A stretch of DNA of 64,000 bases, from assembly GCF_016717175.1 (NCBI RefSeq), contig NZ_JADKFZ010000004.1; one strand, given 5' to 3'. This DNA comes from Nannocystis sp. (GTDB lineage: Bacteria > Myxococcota_A > Polyangia > Nannocystales > Nannocystaceae). Of the stretch, positions 5,627-62,210 are shown piece after piece. Both the position numbers and the translations under genes were made by a program. Under the pieces are notes generated by a model. It was not told where the DNA came from. It ran no database searches and was given only the letters and a program-made list of their open reading frames with translations. Every line of letters begins with the position of its first letter. Within the stretch, counting starts at the first letter, position 1.

Positions 5627-5870
5627 GACGGCCTCCTTCTCGGCGGAGCGATGGATGAATGGACAGAGATAAAGCGCGCAGAGGGAGTTGAACCCTCGCT
5701 TCCTCCGTGGCAGGGAGGCGTGCGGCCACCAGCACCTTGCGCGCAGATCGATGGATCGACGGGTGTGGCCGCGACGGGCCAATGCCGCGGCGAATCGGTG
5801 CCCACGGATATGTGGGCACTTGCGGAGCTGCGACGGCGGGCCGCGGTCCGACGGAGGGCCGATCGAGCGG

Positions 5871-5928
5871 GTGTCCCGATGTCGGGGTGCCCCGATGTCG
5901 GGGTGCCCCGATGTCGGGGGGCGCTCGC
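5871..5928. repeat. 17-bp direct repeat x3 (GTGCCCCGATGTCGGGG)
   Basis: gtgtcccgatgtcggggtgccccgatgtcggggtgccccgatgtcgggg read directly, between the two small minus-strand ORFs. Confidence 0.8.
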
Positions 5929-8796: not shown

Positions 8797-9330
8797 ATGG
8801 CGAGGTCGGTGCATATTCTGTCGTTGCTGGACGACAGCGACATCGAGTGGTTGGTGCAGGTCGGGCTGCGCCTGAGCGTGCCGCCGGTGGCTCCGCTGGT
8901 GGAGGAGGGGCTGCGCACGCCGTTTCTCTACATCATTCTTTCGGGGGCCTTTCTCGTGACGCAGAGCGCGACGGGGGCGACGGAGCGGTCGCTGTCGGTG
9001 ATCCAGCGCGGGGAGCTGGTCGGGGAGCTGTCGTATCTCGACGCGCGGCCGCCGTCGGCGACGGTGCGGGCGGCCCGGGCCTCGCAGGTGCTGGCGGTGG
9101 CGCGCTCGGAGGTCGCGCGCAGGCTGCAGACGGACGTCGGGTTCGCGGCCCGCTTCTACCGGGCGCTGGGGATCACGGTGGCGATGCGGCTGCGGGCCCT
9201 GACGCGCGGCGAGCCGGAGGACGAGCCGGACCTCGAGCAGCTCGGGCTGGTGACGGTGGACGAGCGGCGCTTCGAGGCGATCATGCGCCGGCTGGAGGGG
9301 CTCCCAGGCGACGCAGACGCAGCGAGTTGA
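8797..9330 (+). CDS. cyclic-nucleotide-binding domain protein (no DNA-binding domain)
   Basis: [11 protein letters not shown]...RSATVRA is a cNMP-binding beta-barrel signature. 177 aa with no C-terminal HTH. Confidence 0.8.
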
Positions 9331-11818
9331 GCACGACGGTGAGGCTGCTGAGGGCCATCGCCAGGGCGGCGAGGGCGGGGTGGAGCGCGCGCAGGAAGCC
9401 CGGGGCGGCGGCGATCGGGTAGAGGGCGCCGGCGGCCACCGGGATCAGGACGAGGTTGTAGATCGAGGCCCACAGCAGGTTCTGGCGGACCACGGCGAGG
9501 GTGCGGCGCGACAGCTCCAGGGCCTCGGGCAGGCCGCGGAGGTCGCTGCGCATGAGGGTGAGGTCGGCGGCGTGGATCGCGACCTCGGCGCCGCTGCCCA
9601 TGGCGACGCCGAGGTCGGCCTGGGCCAGGGCGGGGCCGTCGTTGATGCCGTCGCCGACCATGCCGACCGGGCCGTCCCGCTGGAGCGTGACGATCGCGGC
9701 GGCCTTGTCGGCCGGGAGCACGCCGGCGATCACGTCGGCGGCGGGGATGCCGGCCTGGGCGGCGATGGCGATGGCGACCTGGCGGTGGTCGCCGGTCAGC
9801 ATGAGCACGCGCAGGCCGGCGCGGCGCAGGGTGGCGACGGCCTCGGCGGCCTCGGGGCGCAGGGCGTCGGCCAGGGCGAGCAGGCCGAGCAGGGCGCCGT
9901 CGCGGGCCAGCCAGACGAGGGTCTGCGGGGCCTGCAGGGCGGCGGCGGGGAGGGCGAGGAGGGCGGGTGTCGCTTGGGACAGGTGGGTGGGCGCGGGTGA
10001 GGGTGTCTCTTGGGACAGGTCGATGGTGGGCGCGGGGGAGGGTGGTTCTTGGGGCAGGTCGGTGGTGGATGTCCCGGCGGACAGGTCGGGTGTCGCTTGG
10101 GACAGGTGGGTGGCGGCTGTCCCGGGGGACAGGTTTGATGTCTCTTGGGACAGGTTGATCGTGGCGCTGGCGGTGGCTGTCCCGGCGGACAGGTCGGCGG
10201 CGAGGGCGGTGAGGGCGGTGGTGTCGACGTGGTTGCTGGTGAGCCAGCGTTCGCTGCCGATGAGGAGGTCGTGGCCGTCGACGCGGGTGCGCAGGCCGTG
10301 GCCGCCGACGGCGCGGAGGCTGTCGCTGGCGGGGAGCGCCTGGCCGGCGTCGCGGGCGGCGCTGACGATCGCGCGGGCGAGCGGGTGCTCGCTGCGCTGC
10401 TCGGCGGCGGCGGCGAGGCGGAGGAGCTCGCGCGGGTCGACGCCGGGGGCGGGCGCGAGGGCGCTGAGCGTGGGGCGGCCGCGGGTGAGGGTGCCGGTCT
10501 TGTCGAGGACGAGGGTGCGCAGGGCCTGGGCTCGCTCGAGCGCGGCCATGTTCTTGAACAGGACGCCGCGGCGGGCGGCGGCGCCGGTGCCGACGACGAT
10601 CGCGGTCGGGGTGGCGAGGCCGAGGGCGCAGGGGCAGGCGATCACGAGGACGGCGACGGCGCGCAGGAGGGCCGCGCCGGCGCCCTGGTCGGCGAGCAGC
10701 CACCACAGCGTGAAGGTGAGGCCGGCGAGGGCGAGGACGACGGGGACGAACACGGCGGCGACGCGGTCGACCAGGCGCTGCACGGGGGCCTTGCTGGCCT
10801 GGGCGGCGCGGACGAGGCGGACGATCTGGGCCAGGGCCGTGGCTGCGCCGACGCGGGTGGCCTCGATCTCGAGGGCGCCGTCGCCGTTGACGGTGGCGCC
10901 GGTGACGGGGTCGCCGGTGGTCTTGCCGACGGGGCGGCTCTCGCCGGTCAGCATGCTCTCGTCGACCTCGGAGGCGCCGCTGCGGACGACGCCGTCGACC
11001 GGGATCGCGGCGCCAGGGGCGACCAACACGGTGTCGCGGACCCGGACCTCTGCGGCGGGGATCTCGAGCTCGTGGCCGTCGCGGCGGACCCGGGCGGTGG
11101 CGGGGCGGAGCGCGAGCAGGGCCCGGATCGCGGCGCCGGCCTGGCCGCGGGCGCGGGTCTCGAGCAGGCGGCCGACGGCGACGAGGGTGACGATCGCGGC
11201 GGCGGTCTCGAAGTGGACGTGGTGGCCGAGAGCGTGGCTGCCGAGGGACTCGGCGACGACCACCGGGACGCTGGCGAGGAAGGCCACGCCGGCGCCGAGG
11301 CTGATCAGGACGTCCATGGTGGCGGCGCGGGCCTTGAGCGCGTGCCAGGCCCCGCGCAGGTGCGGCGCGCCGGTGTAGGCGAGGACCGGCAGGGCGAGCG
11401 CCAGCATGAGCCACAGGAGCCACGGGGCGGCCGTCCAGGCGCCGAGCAGGTCGAAGTCGCGGCCCATGCCGAGGACCATCAGCGGGGCGGTGCAGGCGAT
11501 CCCGACGAGGACGCGGCGGCGCTGACTGGCGAGCTCGGCGGCGCGGGCCAGCAGCTCGGCATCGTCGCCGCCCTCGCTGCCCGCGATCACGCTGTAGCCG
11601 GCGGCCTCGACGGCGGCGACCAGCTCACCGCGAGTGACTGTGCCGGGGGTCGCCAGGTGCACGCGGGCGGTCTCACTGGCGAAGTTGACGGCGGCCGCGG
11701 CGACGCCGGGGACGCTGGTGAGCGCGCGTTCGACGGTGTTCGCACAGTTGGCGCAGCGCAGCCCGGCGATCGCCAGCTCGAACTCGGGGTCGTCGGCGGC
11801 GGGCACGGAGCCGAGCAT
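9281..11818 (-). CDS. copA: heavy-metal (Cu+-type) P1B-type ATPase with N-terminal HMA domain
   Basis: [19 protein letters not shown], transmembrane CPC (IACPCALG), [15 protein letters not shown]. Carries an in-frame repeat insertion at 9960-10200. Confidence 0.8.
9960..10200. repeat. in-frame tandem repeat array (~24-27 bp units carrying GGGACAGGT/ACCTGTCCC) inside the P-type ATPase nucleotide-binding region
   Basis: gggtgtcgcttgggacaggtgggtgg...gggtgtctcttgggacaggtcgatgg... encodes (DLSAGT/HLSQAT/NLSQET...) repeats between LLIGSERWL and the [10 protein letters not shown] segment. Confidence 0.8.
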
Positions 11819-12730: not shown

Positions 12731-13444
12731 TCAGGTGCAGTAGTTGCCGTTCATGTTGTTGGGCAGGGCGAGGCCGGTGCAGGCCATGCCGATCGGGCAG
12801 TCGGCGACGCCGGTGCACTTGAGGGCGCACACCTTCTGCGCCGGGTTCAGGCTGATCGTCAGGCACTCCTGGACGGCGGGGGCCTTGGGCGCGGGGCCGC
12901 AGTCGGCGACCTGGTTGCACAGCAGGGTGCAGTAGCCGTCGATGACCTTCATCGTCATGGCGTCGGTGATCGTGAAGCAGCCGTCGGTGAGGTTGACGTT
13001 GCAGGGGGTGTTGTCGAGGCAGGACTCGTAGAGGCCGTCGGCGGGCTGCGGGTCCTTCGGGTCGGGTGGGTCGCCGGTGGTGGTGCTGGGGTCGACGTTG
13101 GTGGTGCTGGGGTCGACGCCGGTGGTGGTGCTGGGGTCGACGTTGGTGGTGCTGGGGTCGACGCCGGTGGTGGTGCTGGGGTCGACGCCGGTGGTGGTGA
13201 CGGGGTCGCTGCTGGTCTCGCCGGGGCCCTGGGTGGTCGCGCTGACCTCACCGGTGGTGACGCCGCCGGTCTCGCCGCCGGTGGCGCTGGGGTCGGAGCT
13301 GGCCTGGGTGGGCTGGCTAGCGCTGATGCTGCTGGAGAAGCCGGAGACGTTGGACTTGTCGTCGCCGCAGGCGCTGGCCAGCGAGAGCAGGGAGACGAGC
13401 GCGACGGAGCCTCGCAGGCGGTGAGCGGACGATAAGTAGTGCAT
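12731..13444 (-). CDS. lipoprotein with Thr-rich tandem repeats and Cys-rich C-terminal domain
   Basis: MHYLSSAHRLRGSVALVSLLSLASAC lipobox. (TTGVDPSTTNVDPS)n repeats from the 13075-13205 DNA repeat. C-terminal domain has ~12 Cys. Confidence 0.7.
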   Translation of the reverse strand: MHYLSSAHRLRGSVALVSLLSLASACGDDKSNVSGFSSSISASQPTQASSDPSATGGETGGVTTGEVSATTQGPGETSSDPVTTTGVDPSTTTGVDPSTTNVDPSTTTGVDPSTTNVDPSTTTGDPPDPKDPQPADGLYESCLDNTPCNVNLTDGCFTITDAMTMKVIDGYCTLLCNQVADCGPAPKAPAVQECLTISLNPAQKVCALKCTGVADCPIGMACTGLALPNNMNGNYCT

Positions 13445-13521: not shown

Positions 13522-15108
13522 TCAAGCGGGAACTCGCGGGGCCGGGGCGGGGGCAGGAGCCGGGGCCTTGCGGCGGCGCAGCCACAACTGCCGACAGGCG
13601 CGCAGGGCCAGGAGCAAGGCCAGCAGGAAGCAGGCGGCCCGGCCCTGGACCAGCAGCATGCTGGCGAGGCCGGTGCTGCTCGGCATCAGCGGCGGCGTGG
13701 CGAACAGGAGGGCGTCCGGGGCGCGACAGAGGACCAGGGCGGCGAGGGTGATGAGGGCCCAGGGGACCAGGGCGGCGCGCAGCAGGGCAGCGTCGCTGCA
13801 GTCCCAGCGCCACACGGCGACGCCGGCGAGGACCAGCAGGCCGAGCAGACCGGGGCCGCTGGCGTAGAGCATGGCCTGACCCTGCGGCGGGTAGACGGCG
13901 GGGTTGGAGAGCGAGGGCCAGCCGCACTCGGCGGTCACGCCGAGGAGGGCGAGCAGGAGCCAGCCGACGCCGAGGGCGGGCGGGAGCCAGCGCGGGCCGC
14001 CGAGCGGCGGTGAGAGCAGGGCGAGGCGGCTGGTCCATGGGACATGGTGCGAACGACCTGTCCTCAGGGACAGGCTGGCGAGGATGATGATGAGGCCGGC
14101 GACGGTCCAGCGCAGCGGGCCGGGGCGGGGGATCGTGGCGCCGCGGGCGGGGTCCTGGAGGGCGGCGGCGAGGGGCCGGCCGCGGGCCTCGGGGTGGAGC
14201 TCGGCGCTGAGGGCGTCGGCGAGGGCGCGGGACAGGTCGACCAGGTGGACCAGCGCCGGCAGGCCGGGGGCCACGGCGCCGCCGAACAGGCAGGCGCGGA
14301 CGATGCGGATCTCCGGCTCGGCGCCGCCGTGGCCCCCGGCGGCGCGGTGGCCGTGATCGGAGAGCACGAGCCAGAGGGTGCCGGGGTCGGAGGGGGCGGC
14401 GGTGTGGAGGACGCCGAGGAGGCTGTCGGCCCACGCGGCCGCGGTCGCGTAGTCGAGGGAGGCGGCGCCGCTGCGGTGGCCGGCCTCGTCGACGCGCAGG
14501 AGGTGGACGAAGGCGAGGCGGGCCGGCGAGGCGATGGCGGCGTGGGCGGTGGGGATGAAGTCGTGGGCGCGCCAGTTGGGCAGGTCGTCGGAGGTGGGGT
14601 CGTCGCTCGCGTCCCATTGCGGCAGGGCGCGGCTGAAGCCGAAGGCGTGGACGATCTCCGGGTGCGATTCGGCGACGGCGACGCTGTCGACCTGACGCGG
14701 GAGCGCGGCGCGGGGCGGCTCGGGGAGGCCGCCGACGTGGTACTGCACGCCCGACTGCTGCTGCGTGCGCCCGGTCCACAGGACGTGCTGCACGGGCAGG
14801 GAGACGGTCGGGAAGCCGACGTCGACGTGGAGCTCCTGGCCGCGGGCGCACAGCTCGGAGAGGTGCGGGAGGCCGGCGGCGTGGCTGCGCGAGAGGCCGT
14901 CGAGGAGGACGACGCGGACGCGGACGACTGGTTCGACGCCGGCGCCGATCGGGGCGCGCGGCCACACCGGGGCGTCGTCGGCGACGGCGCCGTCGACGAA
15001 GAACTGGCGGATGAAGGCGCGACGCCCGGCGCCGATGCCGAGGCCCGCGAGCACGAGCGCGAGCAGCAGGAGGCCGCGGAGCGCGAGGGTGCGGGCGAGG
15101 AAGGTCAT
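13522..15108 (-). CDS. alkaline-phosphatase-superfamily (type I phosphodiesterase/sulfatase-like) enzyme with N-terminal TM and C-terminal polytopic membrane domain
   Basis: ATG at 15106-15108 (MTFLARTLALRGLLLLALVLAG). RVDEAGHRSG and LVLSDHGH metal-site motifs of the AP superfamily. The C-terminal third is hydrophobic. Confidence 0.7.
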   Translation of the reverse strand: MTFLARTLALRGLLLLALVLAGLGIGAGRRAFIRQFFVDGAVADDAPVWPRAPIGAGVEPVVRVRVVLLDGLSRSHAAGLPHLSELCARGQELHVDVGFPTVSLPVQHVLWTGRTQQQSGVQYHVGGLPEPPRAALPRQVDSVAVAESHPEIVHAFGFSRALPQWDASDDPTSDDLPNWRAHDFIPTAHAAIASPARLAFVHLLRVDEAGHRSGAASLDYATAAAWADSLLGVLHTAAPSDPGTLWLVLSDHGHRAAGGHGGAEPEIRIVRACLFGGAVAPGLPALVHLVDLSRALADALSAELHPEARGRPLAAALQDPARGATIPRPGPLRWTVAGLIIILASLSLRTGRSHHVPWTSRLALLSPPLGGPRWLPPALGVGWLLLALLGVTAECGWPSLSNPAVYPPQGQAMLYASGPGLLGLLVLAGVAVWRWDCSDAALLRAALVPWALITLAALVLCRAPDALLFATPPLMPSSTGLASMLLVQGRAACFLLALLLALRACRQLWLRRRKAPAPAPAPAPRVPA

Positions 15109-17930: not shown

Positions 17931-18671
17931 TCATGGGCAGTTCTGGACCGGGAGGTCGGTGACCTGCATCGGCTCGCTGGCGGGCACCCAGGGCATGTCC
18001 TGCGGGAAGTCGAGGGTGAGGTCGAGGTCGACTGTGTGCGGGCAGCCGAGCATCGGGTCGATGATGAAGTCGACGGTGCCGGCGCCGGCGATCGCGGCGA
18101 CGCCCATGTTGCCAGGCATGCCGTCGAGGCAGCCGGCGACGCCCTGGGTGATGTTGGCGTTCTGGGCGCCCCACTCGGCGGGGGCGACGATCTTGAGGTT
18201 GGGGTCGCCTTGCGTGGGGTGGGCGACGTGGAGCGTGGTGCAGCGATCGTTCACCACGTCGGCCTTGTGGATCAGGACGTGGTCGAGGCCGCCGGCGAAG
18301 AAGAAGGCGACGTACTGGGCGTCGGGGTCGACGCCGGTGGTGGTGTCGGTGGTGCTGGTCGTGGTGCTGGTCTCACCGGTGGTGCTGGTCTCACCGGTGG
18401 TGGCGTCGCTGGTGGCGGCGTGGGTGGTGATGCTGGCGTGCGTAGTGGCGAGGCCAGTGTCGTGGCCGGTGTCGTGGCCGCTGTCGGTGGTGGTCGACGG
18501 GGTGGTGTCGCTCGAGAGCGGGCTGGTCGGGACGTCGCCGGTGTCGTCGGGGGTCGTGGTGACGTCGGTGGCGCCGGCGGTGCTGCTGGTGCCGGCGGTC
18601 TCGCCGGTGCTGTCGGCCTTGTCGGGGCCGCAGGCGGCGAGGAGGGGCAGAACCAGGAGAAGGCGAGTCAT
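17931..18671 (-). CDS. lipoprotein with Thr/Ser-rich linker and C-terminal Cys-containing domain
   Basis: MTRLLLVLPLLAACGPDKAD lipobox. Linker has TTGETSTTGETSTTTSTTDTTTG repeats. Folded-looking C-terminal ~120 aa. Confidence 0.65.
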   Translation of the reverse strand: MTRLLLVLPLLAACGPDKADSTGETAGTSSTAGATDVTTTPDDTGDVPTSPLSSDTTPSTTTDSGHDTGHDTGLATTHASITTHAATSDATTGETSTTGETSTTTSTTDTTTGVDPDAQYVAFFFAGGLDHVLIHKADVVNDRCTTLHVAHPTQGDPNLKIVAPAEWGAQNANITQGVAGCLDGMPGNMGVAAIAGAGTVDFIIDPMLGCPHTVDLDLTLDFPQDMPWVPASEPMQVTDLPVQNCP

Positions 18672-18729
18672 GAGCCCGGGTGTACGCCGGGCGGCCGCGG
18701 GCTGTCCACGGGGCCGACGAAGCAGGACG

Positions 18730-19142
18730 TCAGGGGCACACGCAGCGGACCTTGTCGCCGCCGTTCGGGACCTTGCCGGTCTGGCCGCAGTCGAGGTCGT
18801 AGCGGGCGCCGGTACAGCGTTGGGCGCCCTTCCCGTCGGGGCTGCAGGCGGAGTACATCTCGACGCAGCCGTCGCCGAGGCCGGGGCGCGGGTGGAGGTC
18901 GCGGTGGCCGGCGAGCGGAGGGGGCGGGGCGGCGGGCGGTGGAGTTGGTGGGGTTTCGGCGAGCGGGGGTGGGGGTGTCGGAGGCGTCGGTGGGGTTTCG
19001 GCGATTGGGGGTGGTGGTGTCGGAGGCGTCGGGGGGTGGGTGCGGTCGGGGGTGTCGGTGGCGTCGGGGCGGCGGGCTTGGTCGGCTCGGTCGGGGCGGT
19101 GCAGGCGAGGAGCAGGGCGCCGAGGAGGAGGAGGCGGTGCAT
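18730..19142 (-). pseudogene. small Pro-rich lipoprotein with 6-Cys C-terminal domain, split by an apparent 1-nt frameshift in a C6 run
   Basis: Signal MHRLLLLGALLLAC in one frame from ATG 19142. The C-terminal GCVEMYSACSPDGKGAQRCTGARYDLDCGQTGKVPNGGDKVRCVCP lies in the +1 frame ending at 18730. The frames join if the run acccaCCCCCCgacg has one extra C. The DNA carries (TPPTPP) repeats. Confidence 0.5.
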
Positions 19143-19190
19143 GGTGGGACGATAACCTGGGTGGGAGCGCGGGCGGTGGGGCACGGGCCG

Positions 19191-19272
19191 GGGTGGGGGG
19201 GGGGGGGGGGGGGGGGGGCGGGGGGGGGGGGCGGGGGGGGGGGGGGGCCCGGGGGGGGGGGGGGGGGGGGGT
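19191..19272. repeat. ~80-nt near-pure poly-G (poly-C on the minus strand) homopolymeric tract
   Basis: gggtgggggg gggggggggg ggggggggcg gggggggggg gcgggggggg gggggggccc ggggggggggggggggggggg read directly. Lies 50-130 nt upstream of the minus-strand lipoprotein start at 19142. Confidence 0.95.
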
Positions 19273-19618
19273 GGGGCCCTGGGGCCCGGGGGCCCGGGGG
19301 CGCCGCCCCGCGCCGCGGGGGGCCCTCCGGCGCGCGACGCCTCCGCTAAAGGCAAGGCGGTCGGCGTCGCCGAGAGCCGGCCCCACCCCGGCCCTGAATG
19401 GGGTGACGTCGCTGCGCGGTATGTAGCAGCGAATGCGACGGGTTGCACTCGATATGTCGCATTGCTGTGAGCCTCGAAGCGCTCACCGTTCAATGCACTC
19501 AAATGGGTCCGGGGCAGTCCTGCGGAGCGTCCGTGTCGGGCGCGCACATTGCTGTCGGGCCCATGTCGCCGCAACAATCGTCGTGGCTGCAGAGGATGCA
19601 ACTCCATTCGAAGCAGGC

Positions 19619-19832
19619 CGTGATGCGTCCAATGTGAATGAGTTGTGGTCGCCGTGTGGCACCTTTCGTTCCTGTCCGAAGAGGCAGGTTGCGAGTCTCA
19701 GGCCGGGGCGGGCCTCGGCGACGCCGTGATGCATGCAATGTGAATGAGTTGTGGTCGCCGTGTGGCACCTTTCGTTCCTGTCCGAAGAGGCAGGTTACGA
19801 GTCTCAGGGCCGGGGCGGGTCCGGCCTCGGCA
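19619..19832. repeat. 107-bp tandem duplication (2 copies) of a lower-GC element
   Basis: gtgatgcgtccaatgtgaatgagttgtggtcgccgtgtggcacctttcgttcctgtccgaagaggcaggttgcgagtctcaggccggggcggg... repeats from 19726 with ~6 mismatches. Copy 2 ends in the hairpin GGCCGGggcgggtCCGGCC. Confidence 0.9.
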
Positions 19833-20013: not shown

Positions 20014-20170
20014 CCCCGGTCCGTGCCACGATACTCGCGGAGTCCTGCTGTGATAGCGAGGATACTCGCGGAGTCCTGCTGTGATAGCCCGGTCCGTGCC
20101 ACGATACTCGCGGAGTCCTGCTGTGATAGGCCGGTCCGTGCCTTGATATTCGCGGACCTGCGATAGCGAG
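20014..20170. repeat. 41-bp tandem repeat (~3.5 copies), lower-GC
   Basis: cccggtccgtgccacgatactcgcggagtcctgctgtgatag repeated, last copy degenerate. Immediately 3' of the cbiX stop on the minus strand. Confidence 0.85.
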
Positions 20171-21902: not shown

Positions 21903-23975
21903 ATGTGTGGGGCCGTGCGTGGCGCGGAGCGACTGCTGTGGGGTTCGTTGTGGCTGCTCGGCTGCGGGGCGGGCGAGCGGGGGCCGTCGGCCAGCCCGTC
22001 GCCGCCGCCGGCGAGCGGGGCGGTCGGTGGGCAGGAGCGCAGCGCGGGGCCGCCGGCTGCGGGTGCGGGGACCGGTGGTGGGATCGCGGGTGTTGCGGGT
22101 CTCGGTGGTGGGTCGAGCGCTGCGGGGCCGGGCGTGGTGGCGCAAGCGGTCGCGGCGAGGCCGGGGCCGGCGGACGCGGGCAGCTGCCCGGCGCAGGACG
22201 ATCCGGGCTACGGGCTGCTGGTGGTGCCGCAGCGGGCGGTGGTCGGGCAGCAGCTGACGATCCTGGCGGCGACGCTCGACGACGAGGCGGCGATCGCCGT
22301 GCGCGTCGACGCCGGGCCGCGGGTGCAGGAGGCGGGGGAGGGTGTCCCTGCGGACATGTCCTTTCGGACTGGTGTGCCGGCGGCGACGATCGTCCGCCTG
22401 ACGCCGACGCAGGCCGGCGAGCTGACGGTGGTCGCCGGGCGCGGCGGGGTCGGGCACGCGTGCTTGCGGGTCAAGGTGCGGGCCGCGGCGGCGCGCGAGG
22501 CCCCGCCGGCGGCGCCCGGGAATCAGGCGTGGCCGAGCGTGCGCGGGTGGGACGCGGGCGAGGAGGCGTTGTACTCGGCGTGGCTGCGCGAGCTGTTCCA
22601 CGCCGAGCTCGGGGCCGACCTGGCGACCACGGCGCTCGACCAGATCACGAGCGACGCGGGGCGCAACCTGCTGCATGGGTCGCTCGGCTGGGACGAGGAC
22701 GCGAAGCACCCGACCGGGCTGGCGATGCGGCCGGACTGCGCCGACGTGCCGTACTTCTTGCGGGCGTACTACGCGTGGAAGCGCGGGCTGCCCTTCGTGT
22801 TCCGCGGCTGCTCGCGCGGGAGCCCGGGCAAGGCGCCGCGCTGCGGTGAGGGGACGGACAACGCGGCGGCGCAGGACGGCACCGGGCCGCAGCCGGGGCA
22901 GCTCGGGGCGGTGCAGTACTACCTGCGGCGGACGCTGGCGTGGGGGGTGCACACGGGCAACGGGCGGGTGGCGATGACGGACGAGCGCAGCGACCTGTAC
23001 CCGGTCCGCCTCGATCGCCGGGCGCTGCGGCCGGGCACGGTGTACGCGGATCCCTACGGGCATATTTTGGTGCTGGTGGAGCTGTTCGAAGGGACAGGTG
23101 GTCGACCGGGGGTGCTGTACGCGGTCGACGGTCAGCCGGACGGGAGCATCACGCGCAAGCGGTTCTGGGAGGGCAACTTCCTGTGGAACCCGGACCCGGG
23201 GCTCGGCGGATCGGGGTTCAAGAACTTTCGTCCGGTGGTGGTGAGGGACGGGGTGGCGGCGCAGATGACCGACGCGGAGATCGCCGGGGCGCCGGGCTAC
23301 GGGGATGGATCGCCGGCGCAGGCCGAGCTGGCGGCGCCGGCCTTTTATGACGCGATGGAGCGCATCATCACGCCGGGGACCCGCGACGCGCTGCTGGCCC
23401 AGGAGGAGGCCGTGGCGGCGCTGTTCGAGCAGGCCCGCGTGCGCGTGACCTCGGTGGCCAACGGCGACGACTACTTTAAAAAGAACCCGGGCGCGACGGT
23501 GGCGATGCCGGAGGGCTTCAAGGTGTTCGAGACGACGGGGGCGTGGGAGTCGTACTCGACGCCGGCACGCGACCTGCGGCTGCTGATCGCGATGGACGTG
23601 GTGCGCGGCTTCTCGGACAAGGTGCGGCGCCAGCCGGCGGTGTTCGGGGTGACCGAGGGGCCGGGGCTGGACGAGTTGATCGTGAAGCTCGAGCAGGCGC
23701 GCGGGGAGCTGCTGGCCGCGCCGCGCTTTCGCTTCGAGTACCGGCGCAGCGACGGGTCGACGTGGGGGCTGACGCTCGCGGATCTGATGACGCGGGCGAG
23801 CGCGCTCGAGGCGGCCTACAACCCGAACGACTGCCCGGAGCTGCGCTGGGGCGCGAAGCCGGGGAGCGACGAGGCGAGGACCTGCGGGCGCACGGCGCCG
23901 GCGGAGCAGCAGGCGAAGATGCAGCGGTACCGGAGCTGGTTCGCGGAGCGCAAGCGTCCGGCGCGGGGGACCTGA
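21903..23975 (+). CDS. large secreted lipoprotein, hypothetical
   Basis: MCGAVRGAERLLWGSLWLLGCGAGE lipobox, Gly/Ala-rich linker, then a ~550-aa globular region with balanced composition (WGVHTGNGRVAMTDERSDLYPVRLD...). No family recognised. The upstream part of track ORF 21270..23975 is low-complexity. Confidence 0.7.
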   Translation: MCGAVRGAERLLWGSLWLLGCGAGERGPSASPSPPPASGAVGGQERSAGPPAAGAGTGGGIAGVAGLGGGSSAAGPGVVAQAVAARPGPADAGSCPAQDDPGYGLLVVPQRAVVGQQLTILAATLDDEAAIAVRVDAGPRVQEAGEGVPADMSFRTGVPAATIVRLTPTQAGELTVVAGRGGVGHACLRVKVRAAAAREAPPAAPGNQAWPSVRGWDAGEEALYSAWLRELFHAELGADLATTALDQITSDAGRNLLHGSLGWDEDAKHPTGLAMRPDCADVPYFLRAYYAWKRGLPFVFRGCSRGSPGKAPRCGEGTDNAAAQDGTGPQPGQLGAVQYYLRRTLAWGVHTGNGRVAMTDERSDLYPVRLDRRALRPGTVYADPYGHILVLVELFEGTGGRPGVLYAVDGQPDGSITRKRFWEGNFLWNPDPGLGGSGFKNFRPVVVRDGVAAQMTDAEIAGAPGYGDGSPAQAELAAPAFYDAMERIITPGTRDALLAQEEAVAALFEQARVRVTSVANGDDYFKKNPGATVAMPEGFKVFETTGAWESYSTPARDLRLLIAMDVVRGFSDKVRRQPAVFGVTEGPGLDELIVKLEQARGELLAAPRFRFEYRRSDGSTWGLTLADLMTRASALEAAYNPNDCPELRWGAKPGSDEARTCGRTAPAEQQAKMQRYRSWFAERKRPARGT

Positions 23976-25589: not shown

Positions 25590-26451
25590 GTGCGCCGCCT
25601 CGCCTGTCTCTGGCTCGCCTCCTCGCTGATCGCGGTGGGCGGGCCGGCGCGCCCGCTGCACGCGGCGCCGGTCAGCGAGCGCGCGGCCGATGTGCCGCTC
25701 GCGGTCGAGGGACCTGCGCCAAAGGACAGGTCGGGAGAGGCTGGCGCGGAGGACAGGTCGGCTGGCTCCGGGGTCGGGGTCAGCTGGCCCGGAGGACAGG
25801 TCGGGAGAGGCTGGCCCGGAGGACAGGTCGGGGTCGGCTGGCCCGGAGGACAGGTCGGCTGGCTCTGGGGACAGGTCGACGCCGCGGTCGGCGGCCGAGG
25901 GGATGCCCGCGGCGCCGCGGGTGCCGGCGCCGACGGCTGCGATCAAGGATGGGGGCCCAGAGCTGGTCACGGTGGCGGTCGGGCTCGGGCCCTCGGCGCC
26001 GGGCTCGAAGGCGGAGACGGCGGTGGTCGACGCGCTCGAGCGCGCCGCCCGGGCCTCGCAGGCGCCGCCGACGCTGGTTCGCCGCCTGCGGGCCGGGGCG
26101 GGCGAGGGGCGGGCGATCTGCCGCGAGCGTCGCGACGACCTGGTGCTGCTGCTCGAGTACATGCCCGATCGACCCGAGCCGGTGTTGGTGCCCCGGGACT
26201 GCCGCCTCGACCGTGAGCTGGCGCTCCGGGGGAAGGAGGCCGCAGGTGAGCCGGCCCTCATCGGCGTACTGTGGGAGGAACATCGGGCGCTCGTCCGCGG
26301 CGGGGCCCGCGAGCGCAAGGTGAGGATCAGCCGCAAGGTGAAGACGGGCCTCATCGCTGGCGGGGCGATCGTGGTCGTCGGGCTGGCGATCGTGCTGGTT
26401 GTGGTCAACAGCTTGCGCCGCGAGACGGTCGTGCTCACAGTGGGGCCATGA
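25590..26451 (+). pseudogene. secreted repeat protein with C-terminal TM helix; apparent 1-nt frameshift in a G4 run within the repeat array
   Basis: Signal (V)RRLACLWLASSLIAVGGPARPLHA in the frame starting 25590. The downstream part (PEDRSGEAGPEDRSGSAGPEDRSAGS...VLVPRDCRLDRE...IAGGAIVVVGLAIVLVVV) is in the next frame (track ORF 25690..26451). The frames join if tccGGGGtcgggg loses one G. The stop overlaps the next gene's ATG (ATGA). Confidence 0.5.
25720..25875. repeat. 27-bp tandem repeat array with AGGACAGGTCG core (5-6 copies)
   Basis: ...ggaggacaggtcgggagaggctggcccggaggacaggtcggggtcggctggcccggaggacaggtcggctggctctggggacaggtcgac... Units are multiples of 3 except for one 43-bp unit. Confidence 0.85.
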
Positions 26452-27491: not shown

Positions 27492-27518
27492 GCGGGTGAG
27501 ACCTCGCCTGGCCTCAGG

Positions 27519-27590
27519 GACATGTCCGTGGGGCCTCGGCTGCTGACTCCGTCCTGAGGGGGGCGCTTCGCCTGGCCCCACGGACATGTC
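27519..27590 (+). terminator. long GC-rich inverted repeat (17-19 bp stem, ~35-nt loop) 28 nt after the metallopeptidase stop; possible terminator/regulatory hairpin
   Basis: gggacatgtccgtggggcc ...loop... ggccccacggacatgtctg. Each arm contains the GACATGTC palindrome. No U-tract. Confidence 0.35.
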
Positions 27591-27692
27591 TGCAAGGCCA
27601 GGTGGATCGGCGCGGCCGAGGTCGAGGGGGCAGGTGGCGCGCCGAGGGCGCGGCTTTACAGGAGGGGGCGCGCTGGGCTATGGCCCCGGACG

Positions 27693-31381: not shown

Positions 31382-31486
31382 CCCGGCGGTGATGGTTACG
31401 CGAGCTCGCGGGCGGCGGCGAGGAAGATCGTGGCCTGGGCGAGCTGCATCCCGGCGGTGGTGATTACGCGAGCTCGGGGCGGGCGC
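31351..31486. repeat. 68-bp tandem duplication (2 copies) at the bioB stop / kefB start junction, creating a 17-codon uORF
   Basis: gcggcgaggaagatcgtggcctgggcgagctgcatcccggcggtgatggttacgcgagctcg repeated from 31419 with ~4 mismatches. The upstream copy encodes MQLAQATIFLAAARELA* (31396..31449, minus). Confidence 0.9.
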
Positions 31487-40230: not shown

Positions 40231-40632
40231 ATGTTCGCGCGGAGCCAGCGACGAGCCGGCCGGCGCTCGCTGAGGGGCGCCGCGGGGCTGGCTCTCGGGG
40301 GGCTGCTCGGCTGCTTCGTGCCGGATTTCCTGGCTTATACGCCGTGCCTGAGCGCGGACAGCTGCGCGGAGGCCGGGCTGCTCGGCTGCCTGTTGCCGCC
40401 GGCGGACAGCGGCCTGCGCGGGCTGTGCACGCTGGCCTGCGAGGACGACGCGGGCTGTCCGGAGGCGGCCGACGGCGACGCGCCGGCTCGCTGCGCGGGG
40501 GTCGGCGAGCGGCGCCTGTGTGTCCTTTCGTGCATGGACGGAGAGACATGTCCCGAGGGACATGTCTGTAAGGAGGTGTCCGGGATCGACGAGGGCGCGG
40601 CGCGGCTGTGCTTCCCGGAGGCGGCGCCGTGA
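40231..40632 (+). CDS. small Cys-rich lipoprotein
   Basis: LALGGLLGC lipobox and 12 Cys in 133 aa. The stop overlaps the next gene's GTG (GTGA). Confidence 0.5.
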   Translation: MFARSQRRAGRRSLRGAAGLALGGLLGCFVPDFLAYTPCLSADSCAEAGLLGCLLPPADSGLRGLCTLACEDDAGCPEAADGDAPARCAGVGERRLCVLSCMDGETCPEGHVCKEVSGIDEGAARLCFPEAAP

Positions 40633-44738: not shown

Positions 44739-45735
44739 TCAGGAGGTGGCGATCACGGCGATGCCCAGGACGATGAGGTAGGGGACGAAGGGGAGCAGGC
44801 CGACGCGCACGAGCAGGGTCATGAGGGCGCGCAGGGTCAGGCTGCCGACCGCGAAGCTGGCGGCGAAGCCGAGGGCGTAGCTGGTCGGGGCGATGCTCGT
44901 GGCGCTGCCGTGCTGCCACAGGTCGAGCGACTCCTTGAGCGAGGCGCCGAGGATCGCGGGGATCGCGAGCAGGAAGGAGAAGCGGGCCGCGGGCAGGCGA
45001 CCGAGGCCGAGGGCCATCGCGGCGGCCATGGTCGAGCCGCTGCGCGAGATGCCGGGCAGGATCGCTACCAGCTGGGCGAGGCCGATGACGAGGCCCTGCC
45101 ACGGGCGCGGGGCCTCGAGGCTGGCGACGCTGTCGTCGCGGCGGTGCGAGAAGGCGAGCAGGGCGGCGGTGATGAGGAAGCCGCAGCCGATCCAGCGGGT
45201 GCTGGTCTCGGCGGCGAGGACGATCGCCATGGTCGTGTCGCTGAGCGCGAGGGCCAGCGGGAGGGTGCCGAGGATGAGCGCGAGCAGGAGGGCGCGGGCG
45301 GTGTTCAGGGGCGGGCCGACGCGCGCGGGGACCAGGTCGCGCGAGGGGCCAGGTGGTGGGCCAGGGTTAGCACCTGGCCGGGCCCGCGGCGGGGGGGGGC
45401 CAGGGGCCTGGCCGTGAACCTGGCCCATTGGACAGGTCGTCGGCGAGCGCGAGGGGGTCGCCGACGGGGGCTGTGGGGGTCCCGGTGTGGTGGACGATCG
45501 CGACCTGGCGCGGCTGGAACACGGCGCGGGCGAGGGCGCCGAGGTCGTGGCGGTAGAACAGCAGGACGGCGACCAGGGTGCCGGCGTGGACGACGATGTT
45601 GAAGGTGTGGCCGCCGCTGGCCGCGTCGACGCCGAGCCAGGTCTGGGCCAGGGCGAGGTGGCCCGAGGAGGAGATCGGGAGGAACTCGGCGACGCCCTGG
45701 AGGGCGCCGAGGGCGAGGGCCAGCAGCGGGCCCAT
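44739..45735 (-). CDS. uppP: undecaprenyl-diphosphatase (UppP/BacA), interrupted by a 1-nt frameshift at a C9 (G9 on plus) homopolymer at 45391-45399
   Basis: N-terminal half (MGPLLALALGALQGVAEFLPISSSGHL...) is in the frame of track ORF 45367.. The C-terminal half (...LLLALILGTLPLALALSD...PGISRSGSTMAAAMALG...) is in ORF 44739..45428. Removing one C from the C9 run joins them. Confidence 0.75.
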
Positions 45736-45746
45736 GCCGGGGTCGC

Positions 45747-47597
45747 TCACGCATCCTCCGCGGGGGCCTCGTTGGCGGCGGAGCTGTCCTCCGGGACAGC
45801 CGCGGACGCGTGCTCGGCGGAGCTGTCCTCCGGGACAGCCGCGGACGCGTGCTCGGCGGAGCTGTCCTCCGGGACAGCCGCGCGCGCGCGCTCGACGACG
45901 CCGCGCTCCCACAGCTGCTCGTCGATCGCGCGCATGAGGGCCGCGGTGCTGCGGCGCTCGTTGGCGCTGATGAAGTAGGTGTGGCGGTCGGCGTCGGCGC
46001 GGCGCTGGTTGAGCTCGTCGGGACCCAGGCGGTCGATCTTGTTGTAGACCCACAGGCGGGGCACGGCGCCGGCACCGATCTCGCCGAGGATCGCCTCGAC
46101 GGTGGCGCGCTGCTGGTCCTGGTCGGGGTCGCTGGCGTCGACGACGACGAGCAGGAGGTCGGCCTCGGCGACCTCCTCGAGGGTGGCGGAGAAGGCCTGG
46201 ACGAGCGCGGGGGGGAGGTCGCGGATGAAGCCGACGGTGTCGAGGAGGACGACCTCGTAGTCCTTGGGGAAGCGGATCCTGCGGACGCTGGGGTCGAGGG
46301 TGGCGAACAGCTTGTCCTCGGCGACGACGGCGCTGTCGGTGACGGTGTTGAGCAGGCTGCTCTTGCCGGCGTTGGTGTAGCCGACGATCGCGACCACGGG
46401 GACGCCGGTGCGCCGGCGCAGGGCTCGACGCTGGTCGCGGCGCTGCTTGAGCGCGAGCAGGCGGCGCTCGAGGTCGTGGATGCGCTCCTTGGCGCGGCGG
46501 CGGTCGATCTCGAGTTTGGTCTCGCCGGGGCCGCGACCACCGATGCCGCCGGCGAGCCGCGACATGGCGGTGCCGTGGCCGATCATCCGCGGCAGGAGGT
46601 AGCGCAGCTGGGCCAGCTCGACCTGCAGCTTGCCGTCGGCCGAGGTGGCGTGCTGGGCGAAGATGTCGAGGATGAGGGTGGTGCGGTCGATGACCTTGAG
46701 GTCGGTGCGCTCGCCGATCTCGCGGGCCTGCGAGGGGGTGAGGTCGGGGTCGCAGATCAGGAGCTCGACGTCCTGGGCGAGGGCCCGCACGAGCACGTCG
46801 CGCAGCTTGCCCTGGCCGAAGAAGGTGCGCGGGTCGGGGCCGGGGCGGCGCTGGGTGGCGAGGTCGACTAAGTGGAGGCCGTCGGTGCGGCACAGCTCGC
46901 GCAGCTCCTGCTCGCGGGCGTGCAGCTCGGGGCCCTCGCCCTGGTGGATCATGAGGGCCATGGCGCGGGTGCCCTGCGACTCGGCGCGCGCGCCCGCGGT
47001 GGCGGCGACGAGGCCGGCCTCGAGGTCGCGGATGAAGCCGAGGAAGTCGGAGGGCATGTCCGCGGCGGGCCGCATGCCGGTGGTGTGGCCGGGGTCGTCG
47101 TCGTCGCGGGCGAGCACGCCGAGCGGGACGCGCGGGAAGCCGCGCACGACGAAGATGTCCTTTGAGCCAGGTTGTGGCGGGGCCAGGCTGGCGAGGTCGA
47201 TCTGGACGCCGGCGGGGCCGCGGTGGATCGCGGCGAGGAGGTCGAGGCGCAGCTTGGCGAGGTCGGCGAGCTCCTCGCGGGTCGGCGGGTCGGGGACCAG
47301 GTGGGTGAGGACCAGCCGGACGCCGCGCAGGCGGCCGCCCTGGCCGCGCACGCGGGTGAACTCCGGGAGGGCGAGGCTGTGGGCGTCGCCGAGGATGACG
47401 CGCTGGACGCGGCCGCGGCGGTCGATGAAGAGGCCGAGCTGGCGGTTGAGCTGGTGCGAGAGCTCGAGCAGGTCGCGCGCGAGCACGGCCGAGATGACGC
47501 TCGTCGGCGGGACCTGGCGCGCGCCGAGCCGCTGCAGCGCGCGGGCCTGGCTGCTCTTGAGGTTCGCCGTGTCGCCGTGGACGATCGGGTCGCTCAC
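45747..47597 (-). CDS. hflX: GTPase HflX with C-terminal repeat extension
   Basis: G-domain VAIVGYTNAGKSSLLN...DTVGF...NKID. N-terminal HflX domain. GTG start overlaps the upstream gene's stop. C-terminal (AAVPEDSSAEHAS)x3 encoded by the 45778-45895 repeat. Confidence 0.85.
   Translation of the reverse strand: MSDPIVHGDTANLKSSQARALQRLGARQVPPTSVISAVLARDLLELSHQLNRQLGLFIDRRGRVQRVILGDAHSLALPEFTRVRGQGGRLRGVRLVLTHLVPDPPTREELADLAKLRLDLLAAIHRGPAGVQIDLASLAPPQPGSKDIFVVRGFPRVPLGVLARDDDDPGHTTGMRPAADMPSDFLGFIRDLEAGLVAATAGARAESQGTRAMALMIHQGEGPELHAREQELRELCRTDGLHLVDLATQRRPGPDPRTFFGQGKLRDVLVRALAQDVELLICDPDLTPSQAREIGERTDLKVIDRTTLILDIFAQHATSADGKLQVELAQLRYLLPRMIGHGTAMSRLAGGIGGRGPGETKLEIDRRRAKERIHDLERRLLALKQRRDQRRALRRRTGVPVVAIVGYTNAGKSSLLNTVTDSAVVAEDKLFATLDPSVRRIRFPKDYEVVLLDTVGFIRDLPPALVQAFSATLEEVAEADLLLVVVDASDPDQDQQRATVEAILGEIGAGAVPRLWVYNKIDRLGPDELNQRRADADRHTYFISANERRSTAALMRAIDEQLWERGVVERARAAVPEDSSAEHASAAVPEDSSAEHASAAVPEDSSAANEAPAEDA
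45778..45895. repeat. 39-bp in-frame tandem repeat x3 at the 3' end of hflX, containing the near-palindrome CTGTCCTCCGGGACAG
   Basis: ggcggagctgtcctccgggacagccgcggacgcgtgctc repeated three times. Confidence 0.85.
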
Positions 47598-51406: not shown

Positions 51407-52270
51407 TCAGCGCGGGCGCTCGGCGTCGCGGAGGGCGTGGCCGAGGCTGAGCAGCAGCATGTACTCACGGGCGTCGCGCAGGGTCTGTTCGTCGCCGCTG
51501 CTGAGGGTGTGGCGGACGCCGTCGGACTCGAAGGCGACGGCGGGCCGGCCCTGGACCTGGCCGAGCCAGTAGCTGCGGCCGCGGTACTCGTGGGCGCGGC
51601 TCGGCCCGGGCTGCTCGGCGCCGGCGGGCCCCCTGGCGGGCCCCCTGGCGGGCTGATGGCGATCGAGCACCAGGCGGGCGCCGACGCGGCGCTTGACGAT
51701 GACGGAGCGGGCCTCGCCGAGCTCGGGGTTGTCCCCCGGGAGGGCCGCGCCGACCAGGCGCACGCCGGCGGCGGGGCGTTCGCCCGGAGCTTCGGCGCCG
51801 ACGATCAGCGGGGCGGCGGTCGCCACGGTGCTCGCGGCGGTGGCGACGGTCGGGCTGGCCTCGAGGACATGTCTCTCGGTTCCTGTCCGCGTGACCAGGA
51901 AGAGGGCGAGGGCGGTGGCGCCGGCGGGGACCATGACGGCGGCGCCGCGGAGGAAGCTGCGCAGGCGGGCGGCGAGGCCCGGGCGGAGCTCGCCGGCGGG
52001 GCGGAGCTCGGCCTCGGCGGCGTGCTCGCGGTCGACGGCGTCGAGCTCGAGCAGGACGCGGGCCTGCAGCGCCTGCGGGGCTGGCTCTCGGGACATGTCC
52101 CGGAGGACCTGGCGGACGGTTCGTTGCTCGTCGACCATGTCCCGAAGGACAGGATCTTCGGCGAGCACGGCCTCGACCCGGGCGCGCTCGGCGGGCCCGA
52201 GCTCGTCGTCGACGAAGGGCTGGATGAGGGCGATGAGGCTGTCGCTGGCGGACTTGGCTTCGGGGCTCAT
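51407..52270 (-). CDS. anti-sigma factor (single TM) cognate to the upstream ECF sigma
   Basis: ATG overlaps the sigma stop (ATGA). Short cytoplasmic N-domain, one TM (AAVMVPAGATALALFLVT), periplasmic C-domain. Confidence 0.6.
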   Translation of the reverse strand: MSPEAKSASDSLIALIQPFVDDELGPAERARVEAVLAEDPVLRDMVDEQRTVRQVLRDMSREPAPQALQARVLLELDAVDREHAAEAELRPAGELRPGLAARLRSFLRGAAVMVPAGATALALFLVTRTGTERHVLEASPTVATAASTVATAAPLIVGAEAPGERPAAGVRLVGAALPGDNPELGEARSVIVKRRVGARLVLDRHQPARGPARGPAGAEQPGPSRAHEYRGRSYWLGQVQGRPAVAFESDGVRHTLSSGDEQTLRDAREYMLLLSLGHALRDAERPR

Positions 52271-52917
52271 GCTTGACCTCGCTTGCGGTACGCGGCGAGC
52301 GACACGGGCGGCTCGGCCTTTGCCTCCACGACCAGGCCGGCCTCGACGGCGGCGGGGTAGAGGAGGGTGTGGAGCTGGCGGCGGCCGCGGTAGATGCGGC
52401 TCATGACGGTGCCGATCGGGCACTCCATGACCTCGGCGATCTCCTTGTAGGAGAGGCCCTCGATGTCGGCGAGGGCGACGGCCATGCGGTAGTCCGGGGG
52501 GAGCTGCTGGAGGGCGGCGTCGATGCGCTCGCGGGTGCCGAGGCGGCCGAGGGCCTGCTCCGGGGTGAGCATGTGGGCGGGGGCGGGGCCGCAGGCGCCG
52601 TCGTCGGCGGCGCTCTCGTGGTGGACGGCGAGCGCACCGTTGGCGATGCGGTCGCGGTTGGCGGTGTGATAGCGGGTGATGAAGGTGTTGCGCACGATGG
52701 TGAAGAGCCACGAGCGGACGCTCGTGCCGGGCTTGAAGCTGGCCCAGAAGCGGTAGGCGCGGACCATGACGTCCTGCGCGAGATCTTCGGCCTCGGCCCG
52801 GCTCCGGGTCAGGCGGAGGGCCATGCCGAAGACGCGGTCCAGCTGGGGGAGGACCGTGTCCTCGAAGGCGCGACGAGCAGCGGCGTCCATGCGGGGGTCG
52901 GAACCGGAGGGGGTCAT
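52267..52917 (-). CDS. ECF-family RNA polymerase sigma factor
   Basis: Region 2 (AEDLAQDVMVRAYRFW...RSWLFTIVRN) and region 4 HTH (LSYKEIAEVMECPIGTVMSRIYRGR). An alternative start is the second in-frame ATG (MDAAARRAFED...). Confidence 0.85.
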   Translation of the reverse strand: MTPSGSDPRMDAAARRAFEDTVLPQLDRVFGMALRLTRSRAEAEDLAQDVMVRAYRFWASFKPGTSVRSWLFTIVRNTFITRYHTANRDRIANGALAVHHESAADDGACGPAPAHMLTPEQALGRLGTRERIDAALQQLPPDYRMAVALADIEGLSYKEIAEVMECPIGTVMSRIYRGRRQLHTLLYPAAVEAGLVVEAKAEPPVSLAAYRKRGQA

Positions 52918-54824: not shown

Positions 54825-54839
<15 letters not shown>

Positions 54840-54905
54840 GGCTGTCCGAGGGGACAGGTTGCGGCCGGCGTGCTTGATGTGAGGCTGTCCGAGCGGACAG
54901 GTCAG
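54825..54905. repeat. ~45-bp tandem duplication (2 copies) carrying GTCCGAG(G/C)GGACAGGT, between convergent genes
   Basis: cctgatgtgaggctgtccgaggggacaggttgcggccggcgtgcttgatgtgaggctgtccgagcggacaggtcagcgg read directly. Confidence 0.7.
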
Positions 54906-57232: not shown

Positions 57233-57382
57233 GGCGCGGGGGACAGGTGCGAGGAGACAGGTGCGAAGGGACAGGTTGGAAGGGACAGGTGGGATGGCCG
57301 CGGGGACAGGTGCGAAGGGACAGGTGGGGATGGCCGAAGGGACAGGTGGGAGGGGACCGGTGGGGATGGCCGAAGGGACAGC
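57233..57382. repeat. intergenic tandem array of ~14-25-bp units built on GGGACAGGTG (about 9 copies)
   Basis: ggggacaggtgcgaggagacaggtgcgaagggacaggttggaagggacaggtgggatggccgcggggacaggtgcgaagggacaggtggggatggccgaagggacaggtgggaggggaccggtggggatggccgaagggacagctcaggtgg. Lies directly upstream of the ATG at 57232, between the two M16 genes. Confidence 0.9.
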
Positions 57383-62148: not shown

Positions 62149-62210
62149 CCCGGGCTGGCCCCCGGGACATGCGCCGAAGGACATGGCAGATCGGACATGT
62201 CCTCGCGGCC

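Follow-up and report, generated by a model that had tools for sequence, protein, structure and literature searches.

A 64,000-nucleotide stretch of Nannocystis sp. DNA (contig NZ_JADKFZ010000004.1, assembly GCF_016717175.1; hereafter the window) carries, inside several conserved genes, in-frame tandem arrays centred on a short palindrome; the gene of a P1B-type copper ATPase is one of them. An earlier note on this DNA had pointed to such arrays in the ATPase, in HflX and in a secreted protein. The arrays are real overall, but the core attributed to HflX and the details given for the secreted protein were wrong, and the note missed the main point, which is a genus-wide, highly over-represented repeat family. 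We think it probable that this family is a DNA-level repeat under active maintenance, and that slippage or unequal recombination makes its local arrays grow and shrink. The window (G+C 73.8%) encodes an HflX that is 100% identical to an NCBI protein labeled "MAG: Nannocystis sp.", and we therefore take it to be sequence of a metagenome-assembled genome (MAG); the best ATPase homologues are likewise from Nannocystis. Gene calls are our own, based on G+C content at third codon positions (GC3). Relatives were compared as fetched loci (L001, L082, L083 from N. pusilla, L085, L086 and L089), and what we say of the genome as a whole is drawn from ~240 kb of Nannocystis DNA rather than from whole genomes.

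A profile of 138 sites, taken from all Nannocystis-clade DNA in hand, yields a 20-bp palindromic consensus, ACCTGTCC-N4-GGACAGGT, and in the flanks of the core shows nothing but the palindromic extension ACC/GGT. At no more than one mismatch, 42 sites are found in the window versus 1.3 expected under an order-2 Markov model, an over-representation of ~30-fold and a density of ~0.65 sites per kb. The half-site GGACAGGT is present in 32 copies (1.44 expected) and ranks, together with the perfect palindrome GGACATGTCC, among the most over-represented 8- to 10-mers; CTGTCC-N4-GGACAG is the commonest perfect hairpin with a 6-bp stem (10 copies, with no more than three of any other). Judging from this census, GGACAGGT is just one half-site variant of a larger over-represented family. 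The arrangement of half-sites is strict: TGTCC...GGACA pairs occur at a spacing of 4 only (15 cases) and GGACA...TGTCC pairs at a spacing of 0 only (seven cases), so that the family amounts to a chain, TGTCC-NNNN-GGACA followed directly by TGTCC-NNNN-GGACA, with a 14-bp period and with GGACATGTCC junctions between the chained units. Units range from 14 to 39 bp in length, and no duplications are seen beside single sites.

Copies of GGACAGGT are split unevenly between strands, 29 on the plus and three on the minus. This bias is explained by the strong GC skew of the region, and it flips in loci of opposite orientation. The skew, (G-C)/(G+C), is +0.18 over the window and +0.15 to +0.23 in every 8-kb bin, unusually strong and uniform, and it is -0.21 in the syntenic locus L001, which lies in the opposite orientation. 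Genes on the minus strand, the ATPase among them, appear rich in C, and those on the plus strand rich in G. We considered the strand bias as a possible sign of a replication-oriented signal (Chi, or the FtsK-orienting polar sequences, KOPS) but rejected this, because the bias tracks GC skew and follows locus orientation. We also set aside the idea of lineage "dialects" (DLS versus DMS units): ATPase arrays do differ by lineage, but the half-site variants GGACAGGT and GGACATGT coexist genome-wide in most of the longer Nannocystis samples.

The motif family is present in every Nannocystis sample examined. The pooled DNA of the clade (the window plus 14 fetched loci, including N. pusilla and several metagenome lineages) contains 52 perfect sites in 216 kb, and a 21.7-kb locus of N. 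punicea has six perfect sites and 11 more with one mismatch. No perfect site occurs in ~21.8 kb of Enhygromyxa or in ~21.8 kb of Pseudenhygromyxa, sister genera belonging to the same family as Nannocystis. We reused as further negatives 80 loci from other phyla, originally matches listed for a scan with universal P-type ATPase patterns; these contain two perfect sites in 1.29 Mb, and none in the 308 kb of the subset with GC >0.62. In these samples, the site family is specific to Nannocystis and its closest metagenomic relatives. A link to phages was rejected, as viral contigs gave 96 stretches, almost all of them single-copy. We found no Nannocystis repeat of this sort described in the searchable literature, where GGACATGTCC appears only as a p53 half-site.

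About 30 of the 42 window sites (~70%) lie inside predicted genes, and the other 12 are intergenic. The genic sites are read in all three frames and in both orientations, and give peptides as different as LSxGT, VPxDxS and TCPEGH. Among them is the isolated palindrome CCTGTCC-CTGA-GGACAGG (coding strand; 14059..14072, minus strand). It falls in a phosphodiesterase-family protein, in the loop that follows a transmembrane helix, and its position is conserved across the genus. Four genomes retain it there, each with a different loop sequence; the codons used are rare (ACA, in one relative even TTA), and N. pusilla reads the same GGACAGGTCG in another frame. Given the unrelated peptides from three frames, the presence on both strands, the rare codons and the arrays in non-coding DNA, the repeated entity is, on the evidence of its sequence, DNA and not peptide. 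This bears directly on a protein-level explanation, in which selection would act on DLSxGT, PEDSS and EDRS as linear motifs with a function (e.g., kinase sites, flexible linkers), and codon choice would have produced the palindrome incidentally. The units are indeed rich in Ser and Thr and lie in disordered segments, and myxobacteria encode many Ser/Thr kinases, two of them within the window. Nevertheless, one DNA sequence yielding unrelated peptides in three frames, arrays outside genes, the rare codons ACA, TCC, CAA and TTA, and a phosphodiesterase site that keeps its DNA while changing its frame have already largely refuted the explanation, and we regard it as very improbable.

If the repeat is DNA, it could be preserved for its fold or for its sequence. 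Folded as single-stranded DNA, single units give hairpins of moderate stability (-4.5 to -7.8 kcal/mol, z = -2.2 to -4.2). Selection for RNA or DNA structure was rejected for lack of compensatory changes: of 119 double-mismatch sites, five are Watson-Crick compensated, which at 4.2% versus 3.7% by chance is no signal. With TGGCC, the most frequent arm variant, a G.A mismatch remains. Moreover, an intergenic array between two M16 peptidase genes (57233..57382, plus strand) consists of ~9 direct GGGACAGGTG half-sites at 14/21/22-bp spacing and has no fold (z = +0.9). From the missing compensation, the mismatched arm and the direct array that does not fold, the recognition unit looks like the 8-bp half-site GGACA(G/T)GT, used either directly or inverted.

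The copper ATPase (CopA-like, 845 amino acids; 9281..11818, minus strand) is an open reading frame (ORF) whose homologues have the Pfam domains HMA, E1-E2_ATPase and Hydrolase, and it aligns to the CopA structures 3J09 and 3RFU. It hosts an in-frame array of eight palindrome-centred units (9965..10195, minus strand), which encodes the 77 residues from 542 to 618. On the coding strand the unit is (A)CCTGTCC-N3/4-G(G/A)GACA, translated as [DNH]L(S/P)x(G/E/A)(T/P), with peptides that include DLSAGT.., NLSQET.., NLSPGT.. and HLSQATP. The interval 9977-10194 contains seven copies of GGACAGGT and one GGGGCAGGT variant, and the distances between them are 36, 36, 30, 21, 27, 21 and 39 bp, all divisible by 3. 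Residues 528-628 stand in place of 19 residues of Archaeoglobus fulgidus CopA (3J09), that is, ~82 extra, in good agreement with the ~80 given in the earlier note. The note also asked whether the insert sits in a surface loop, and an AlphaFold2 model based on 30 orthologues (mean predicted local distance difference test, pLDDT, 73.7) supports this: the insert is placed between helix 534-545 and strand 632-639, residues 558-615 have pLDDT <50, and the segment is predicted to be a disordered surface loop where the N-domain ends. Codon usage in the insert differs sharply from that of the window genes, with ACA for 7 of 18 Thr (versus 4.3%), TCC for 9 of 13 Ser (versus 13%) and CAA for 5 of 7 Gln (versus 4%).

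Every ATPase unit carries the palindrome in all five orthologues with fetched DNA. In an alignment of 30 sequences, the insert is found at exactly the same position in every Nannocystis-clade ATPase (58-98% identity) and in none of the four non-Nannocystis ATPases. Its content and length vary widely across the clade, mostly with D[LM]S-type units. The insertion site thus appears to be old within the genus, with its content turning over. The insert is lineage-specific, as had been proposed, in that it is absent outside the Nannocystis clade, but it is no recent strain-level event, since it is present down to ~58% identity. The same insert in distant relatives, an outcome that had been named as speaking against the proposal, is nearly what we observe within the clade as far as position is concerned, although content is not conserved. 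Turnover is visible at short range as well. The window ATPase differs from a 98%-identical protein by a 26-residue indel in the insert (this relative was compared as protein), and from L082 by a 54-bp indel bounded by ACCTGTCCCAAG cores, the remaining gene being 95.7% identical with only two 3-nt indels.

In HflX (45747..47597, minus strand) the array forms the end of the gene, as a near-perfect tandem repeat of 3 x 39 bp (45776..45894, minus strand; 96% matching). It encodes 3 x 13 residues (AAVPEDSSAEHAS), just as previously described. The core was said to be the same as in the ATPase, but the HflX units are devoid of GGACAGGT, which has no match between 45437 and 54852. They carry instead GCTGTCC-CGGA-GGACAGC, with the strings GGACAGCC/GGACAGCT, so that the two arrays share only the palindrome CTGTCC-N4-GGACAG, in different frames (AVPEDSS versus LSxGT). 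The HflX of the 95%-identical relative L085 has two units versus three, through a clean 39-bp indel in a gene alignment of 97.4% identity. Tails of other relatives carry the motif as AAVPEDSS or (P)EDMSE, the EDMSE form corresponding to GGACATGTCC. Precomputed Pfam matches of ATPase and HflX homologues consist of enzyme domains only.

Directly downstream of HflX, the gene for undecaprenyl-diphosphatase (UppP/BacA) has a motif-bearing insert in a loop (45340..45440, minus strand), which comprises LADDLSNGPGS and degenerate CCTGGCC/GGCCAGG units. There is one motif copy in the window and two in L085, and the BacA of N. punicea has an insert in the same loop. In the window, a frameshift within the motif insert breaks the gene (44739-45750, minus strand) into two overlapping ORFs; it adjoins nine consecutive C (G on the plus strand, ~45390-45400), and the ORF of L085 is intact. 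The frameshift may represent a homopolymer or assembly error, or a real pseudogene.

Another setting is a Nannocystaceae secreted or membrane-anchored protein, where GGACAGGTCG units, read as EDRS, form an array at 25715..25880 (plus strand). It had been taken for the body of the protein. Dozens of homologues show a signal peptide, then motif repeats, then a conserved domain, and the array is therefore a linker. Its spacings are 27/43/27/27/21 bp, the 43-bp step containing a 21-bp unit minus 5 bp (GGGG[ACAGG]TC, 25765-25785). Because of this step, the assembly has the signal peptide in the frame of 25590 but the conserved C-terminal domain in that of 25690..26451; unit lengths in multiples of three, proposed for all these arrays, thus hold for the ATPase and HflX but not for this one. 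In L086, 96% identical at the protein level, there is one continuous ORF with the units arranged differently. Linkers of relatives read the motif as PEDRS, PEDMSE or VPADSS.

Misassembly could be suspected as the source of the arrays: the window derives from a MAG, it has a ~90-nt poly-G tract, and two of its genes are frame-broken exactly in motif arrays. However, equivalent arrays occur at the same gene positions in independent Joint Genome Institute (JGI) metagenome contigs and in the complete isolate genomes of N. pusilla and N. punicea, and dozens of database orthologues have such inserts. The arrays are no mere product of assembly, and we find this explanation hardly credible.

Close relatives differ by whole units in the ATPase, in HflX, in UppP (one versus two) and in the secreted-protein array, where units are rearranged. 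Copy-number comparison, which had been put forward as a check, thus came out positive, and whole-unit indels of this kind point to slippage or unequal recombination within arrays. Isolated sites behave differently, being retained or changed by substitutions. We saw no pairs of filled and empty sites in syntenic comparisons and no target-site duplications, which argues against recent transposition. We therefore consider it rather unlikely that the motif is a miniature mobile element, either resembling the repetitive extragenic palindromic (REP) sequences and REPINs moved by a REP-associated tyrosine transposase (RAYT/HUH enzyme) or similar to a miniature inverted-repeat transposable element (MITE), with arrays being clustered insertions as in bacterial interspersed mosaic elements (BIMEs). 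The idea has some appeal, since the palindrome is dispersed, genus-specific and of REP-like size, its intergenic copies lie just past stop codons and between operon genes in REP fashion, and palindromic elements inserted in frame are known in Rickettsia (PMC10969869). Yet sites are kept at orthologous positions across the genus, ~70% of them are intragenic, they have no GTAG-type head, and no transposase was found among the window proteins scanned.

A burst of insertion in the ancestor of the genus, followed by neutral decay, does not fit either. Two chained units inside a gene (22343..22370, plus strand; read as GVPADMSFRTG) are identical in L089 despite flanks of 82% identity, and the phosphodiesterase site likewise stays intact as its surroundings diverge. 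As burst plus decay fails, an ongoing sequence-specific process, selection or drive, appears to be needed. One candidate is a recognised DNA signal akin to DNA uptake sequences or Chi, accumulating by drive or selection, with the coding arrays as a side effect. A density of ~0.65 sites per kb in coding and non-coding DNA, genus specificity, inverted pairs common after genes, enrichment in weakly constrained parts of proteins, maintenance beyond that of the flanks, and a half-site acting as a unit whether direct or inverted are all consistent with it. On the other hand, tandem arrays and strict N4 spacing are atypical of uptake sequences, the coexistence of both half-site variants leaves no clean lineage dialects, and the strand bias merely tracks GC skew. 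To our knowledge, competence is undocumented for Nannocystis. In this simple form, we give the signal explanation only a small chance of being right.

What we favor is an actively maintained DNA-level repeat with locally expanding and contracting arrays. The arrays would arise by local tandem amplification of units around the Nannocystis-specific repeat, and would gain or lose whole units when the repeated cores slip during replication or recombine unequally. Within genes, mostly frame-preserving lengths (multiples of three) would persist, and the extra peptide would be a passenger rather than a functional domain. Abundance across the genome would be sustained by an ongoing sequence-specific process, whose most likely driver would be a protein recognising the 8-bp half-site, through selection or drive; selection on a DNA or RNA hairpin seems less likely. 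More tentatively, we suggest that GGACA(G/T)GT may be a genus-specific signal read by a dedicated putative protein and employed alone, in inverted pairs spaced by N4 or in 14-bp chains; selection or drive would keep writing it into every stretch that tolerates it, remodelling loops and tails of core proteins throughout the genus along the way. It could be similar to signals for uptake, for recombination or of the nucleoid, or to a REP system independent of hairpins.

Several observations weigh against a maintained repeat that seeds its own arrays. The association of the motif with strong tandem arrays is modest: 4 of 24 motif loci lie in them, versus 4.1% of the sequence (p = 0.015). Of the 26 strong tandem arrays in the 64 kb, 22 are without the motif, from which array formation looks like a general habit of this genome. 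The earlier idea of the palindrome as a hotspot of slippage or recombination is accordingly supported in part, by repeats that are motif-centred at the DNA level and by the array association, but a hairpin is not required and most arrays are motif-free. Hairpins, being moderately stable, may still have a role in slippage. Conservation at orthologous coding sites could derive partly from constraint on the peptide. No recognising protein, transposase or methyltransferase was identified among the window proteins scanned against Pfam (all but ten of ~49 predicted proteins); these are ordinary housekeeping proteins, with no candidate agent among them. Finally, the disruption of frame in two motif-bearing genes may reflect assembly errors in the MAG, which calls for caution on exact unit counts, and these should be confirmed by reads.

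Other sites in the window lie in further genes and in intergenic DNA. An intergenic chain with a 14-bp period (62150..62215, plus strand; folding z = -4.4) consists of three GGACATG followed by a GGCCATG in which a lipoprotein gene has its start codon. The gap between two convergent genes (54836..54905, plus strand) is filled by two copies of TGATGTGAGG-CTGTCC-N4-GGACAGGT. In the 3' untranslated region after a Peptidase_MA gene there are two chained units, CCTGGCC-N4-GGACATGTCC (27500..27605, plus strand), and similar chains are present in relatives at non-orthologous positions. The third frame is used in a small Cys-rich protein (ETCPEGHVC; 40549..40562, plus strand); in this ORF (40222-40632, plus strand) the chain uses the rare codons ACA and TGT and may overlap a myxobacterial Cys-repeat pattern. 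By Pfam coordinates and our own arithmetic, the site at 30230 falls at about residue 379 of a KefB-like protein, between Na_H_Exchanger (11-374) and TrkA_N (400-514), probably in the linker between the two domains. Wherever its location could be placed, the motif in genes lies in segments that tolerate change: the disordered loop of the ATPase N-domain, the C-terminal tail of HflX, the linker that follows a signal peptide, loops next to transmembrane helices on their C-terminal side, or this probable inter-domain linker. Three further sites share one frame (HVLEAS, QVLRDMS and PVLRDMV) in an ORF at 51407-52270 (minus strand), downstream of an extracytoplasmic function (ECF) sigma factor (52267..52890); the ORF has no Pfam match and is likely to be an anti-sigma factor. 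In N. pusilla (L083), a 984-residue protein of unknown function contains at 840-1260 a long in-frame series of TGTCCGGAGGGACAGGTTCGTCGGG type with 51/57/54-bp spacing, and chains with a 14-bp period also follow stop codons (18100-18160 and 18920-18990).

A scan of the window against Rfam returned two tRNAs and nothing else. They lie at 1300-1373 and 5673-5744 (minus strand); close by are a perfect site of the palindrome (1004) and a repeat of 16 bp x3.2 (5869-5919). The latter is one of the tandem loci of the window, which also include 7483-7611, 13072-13208, 19617-19819, 20030-20156, 31343-31492 and 47992-48120; their periods are mostly multiples of three, with exceptions such as 106 bp x1.9 (19617-19819) and 68 bp x2.2 (31343-31492, near a gene start). 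The poly-G tract, almost pure G on the plus strand (19185-19300), looks like a sequencing or assembly artefact or a chimeric join, and lies in or beside a long GC3-supported stop-to-stop ORF (17931..19697, minus strand).

If the census holds genome-wide, Nannocystis genomes (12-13 Mb) would carry thousands of copies of the repeat. Should the interpretation be true, it would provide a clean case of a DNA-level repeat, rather than protein function, driving insertions and length variation in CopA, HflX and UppP, with a bearing on the origin of disordered segments in bacterial proteins and on the upkeep of over-represented oligonucleotides, a question unsettled for REP elements and for HIP1, the highly iterated palindrome of cyanobacteria. 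Annotation and assembly of these genomes would be affected as well, two genes of the MAG being broken in frame exactly at such arrays. The strict grammar of half-sites offers a concrete bait for finding the factor that recognises them.

Several known systems share features with this family. Rickettsia palindromic elements (RPE) are selfish palindromic repeats of ~100-150 bp, found in frame in protein-coding genes (PMC10969869). Like them, the Nannocystis family is palindromic and genus-restricted, preserves the frame in unrelated housekeeping genes (ATPase, HflX, UppP, the secreted-protein linker, the phosphodiesterase loop), occupies permissive regions and is also intergenic (PMC10969869). 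RPE are single insertions, each with a conserved peptide, whereas the Nannocystis core measures 14-20 bp, is read in three frames and forms tandem arrays whose units vary in length, without insertion polymorphism. We saw neither an element of 100-150 bp with terminal inverted repeats and a target-site duplication, as expected of RPE or MITEs, nor filled and empty sites among relatives. With the REP, BIME and REPIN elements of proteobacteria the family shares a short imperfect palindrome (~20-40 nt) in high copy number, clustered arrays, and intergenic copies after stops and between operon genes. REP sequences, however, are extragenic by definition, with a conserved tetranucleotide at the head and a RAYT cognate to them, whereas the Nannocystis copies are mostly intragenic and have no GTAG-like head.

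HIP1 (GCGATCGC) is an 8-mer without spacer whose function is not agreed. Like the Nannocystis family, it is short, palindromic, confined to one lineage and far more frequent than expected in both coding and non-coding DNA, but it differs in sequence and taxon, and is not known to form hairpin chains or in-frame tandem arrays. The DNA uptake sequences (DUS) and uptake signal sequences (USS) of Neisseriaceae and Pasteurellaceae occur about once per kb, in genes at poorly constrained segments and as inverted pairs downstream. The density of the Nannocystis motif (0.65 per kb), its presence in genes and its pairs after stop codons may point to such a sequence; its tandem arrays, of a kind not described for DUS and USS, and the fixed 4-bp spacing of its inverted pairs may point away from one. 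We know of no link to competence in Nannocystis.

Two more classes are repeats that lie within genes. Palindromic amphipathic repeat coding elements (PARCELs) are intragenic tandem repeats with DNA dyad symmetry and variable copy number, features that the Nannocystis arrays share, and they encode a defined amphipathic domain of 25 residues in accessory membrane proteins and spread horizontally (PMC2996958). The Nannocystis units, in contrast, are 7-13 residues long with no common peptide and no 25-residue domain, and are found in core genes inherited vertically within one genus. Pairs kept by compensatory change, the mark of a structured RNA, are also missing. Coding variable-number tandem repeats (VNTRs) agree best: head-to-tail units, lengths in multiples of three (with the one 43-bp spacing in the 25.7-kb array as the exception), copy number differing between close strains, and location in disordered segments. 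The Nannocystis feature lacks at least one defining property of each of RPE, REP/BIME and PARCELs, and probably also of HIP1 and uptake sequences, and shows all of those of a coding VNTR. What sets it apart from an ordinary VNTR, whose unit is specific to its locus, is that unrelated Nannocystis loci have a palindromic core in common, and that single copies of this core are over-represented too.

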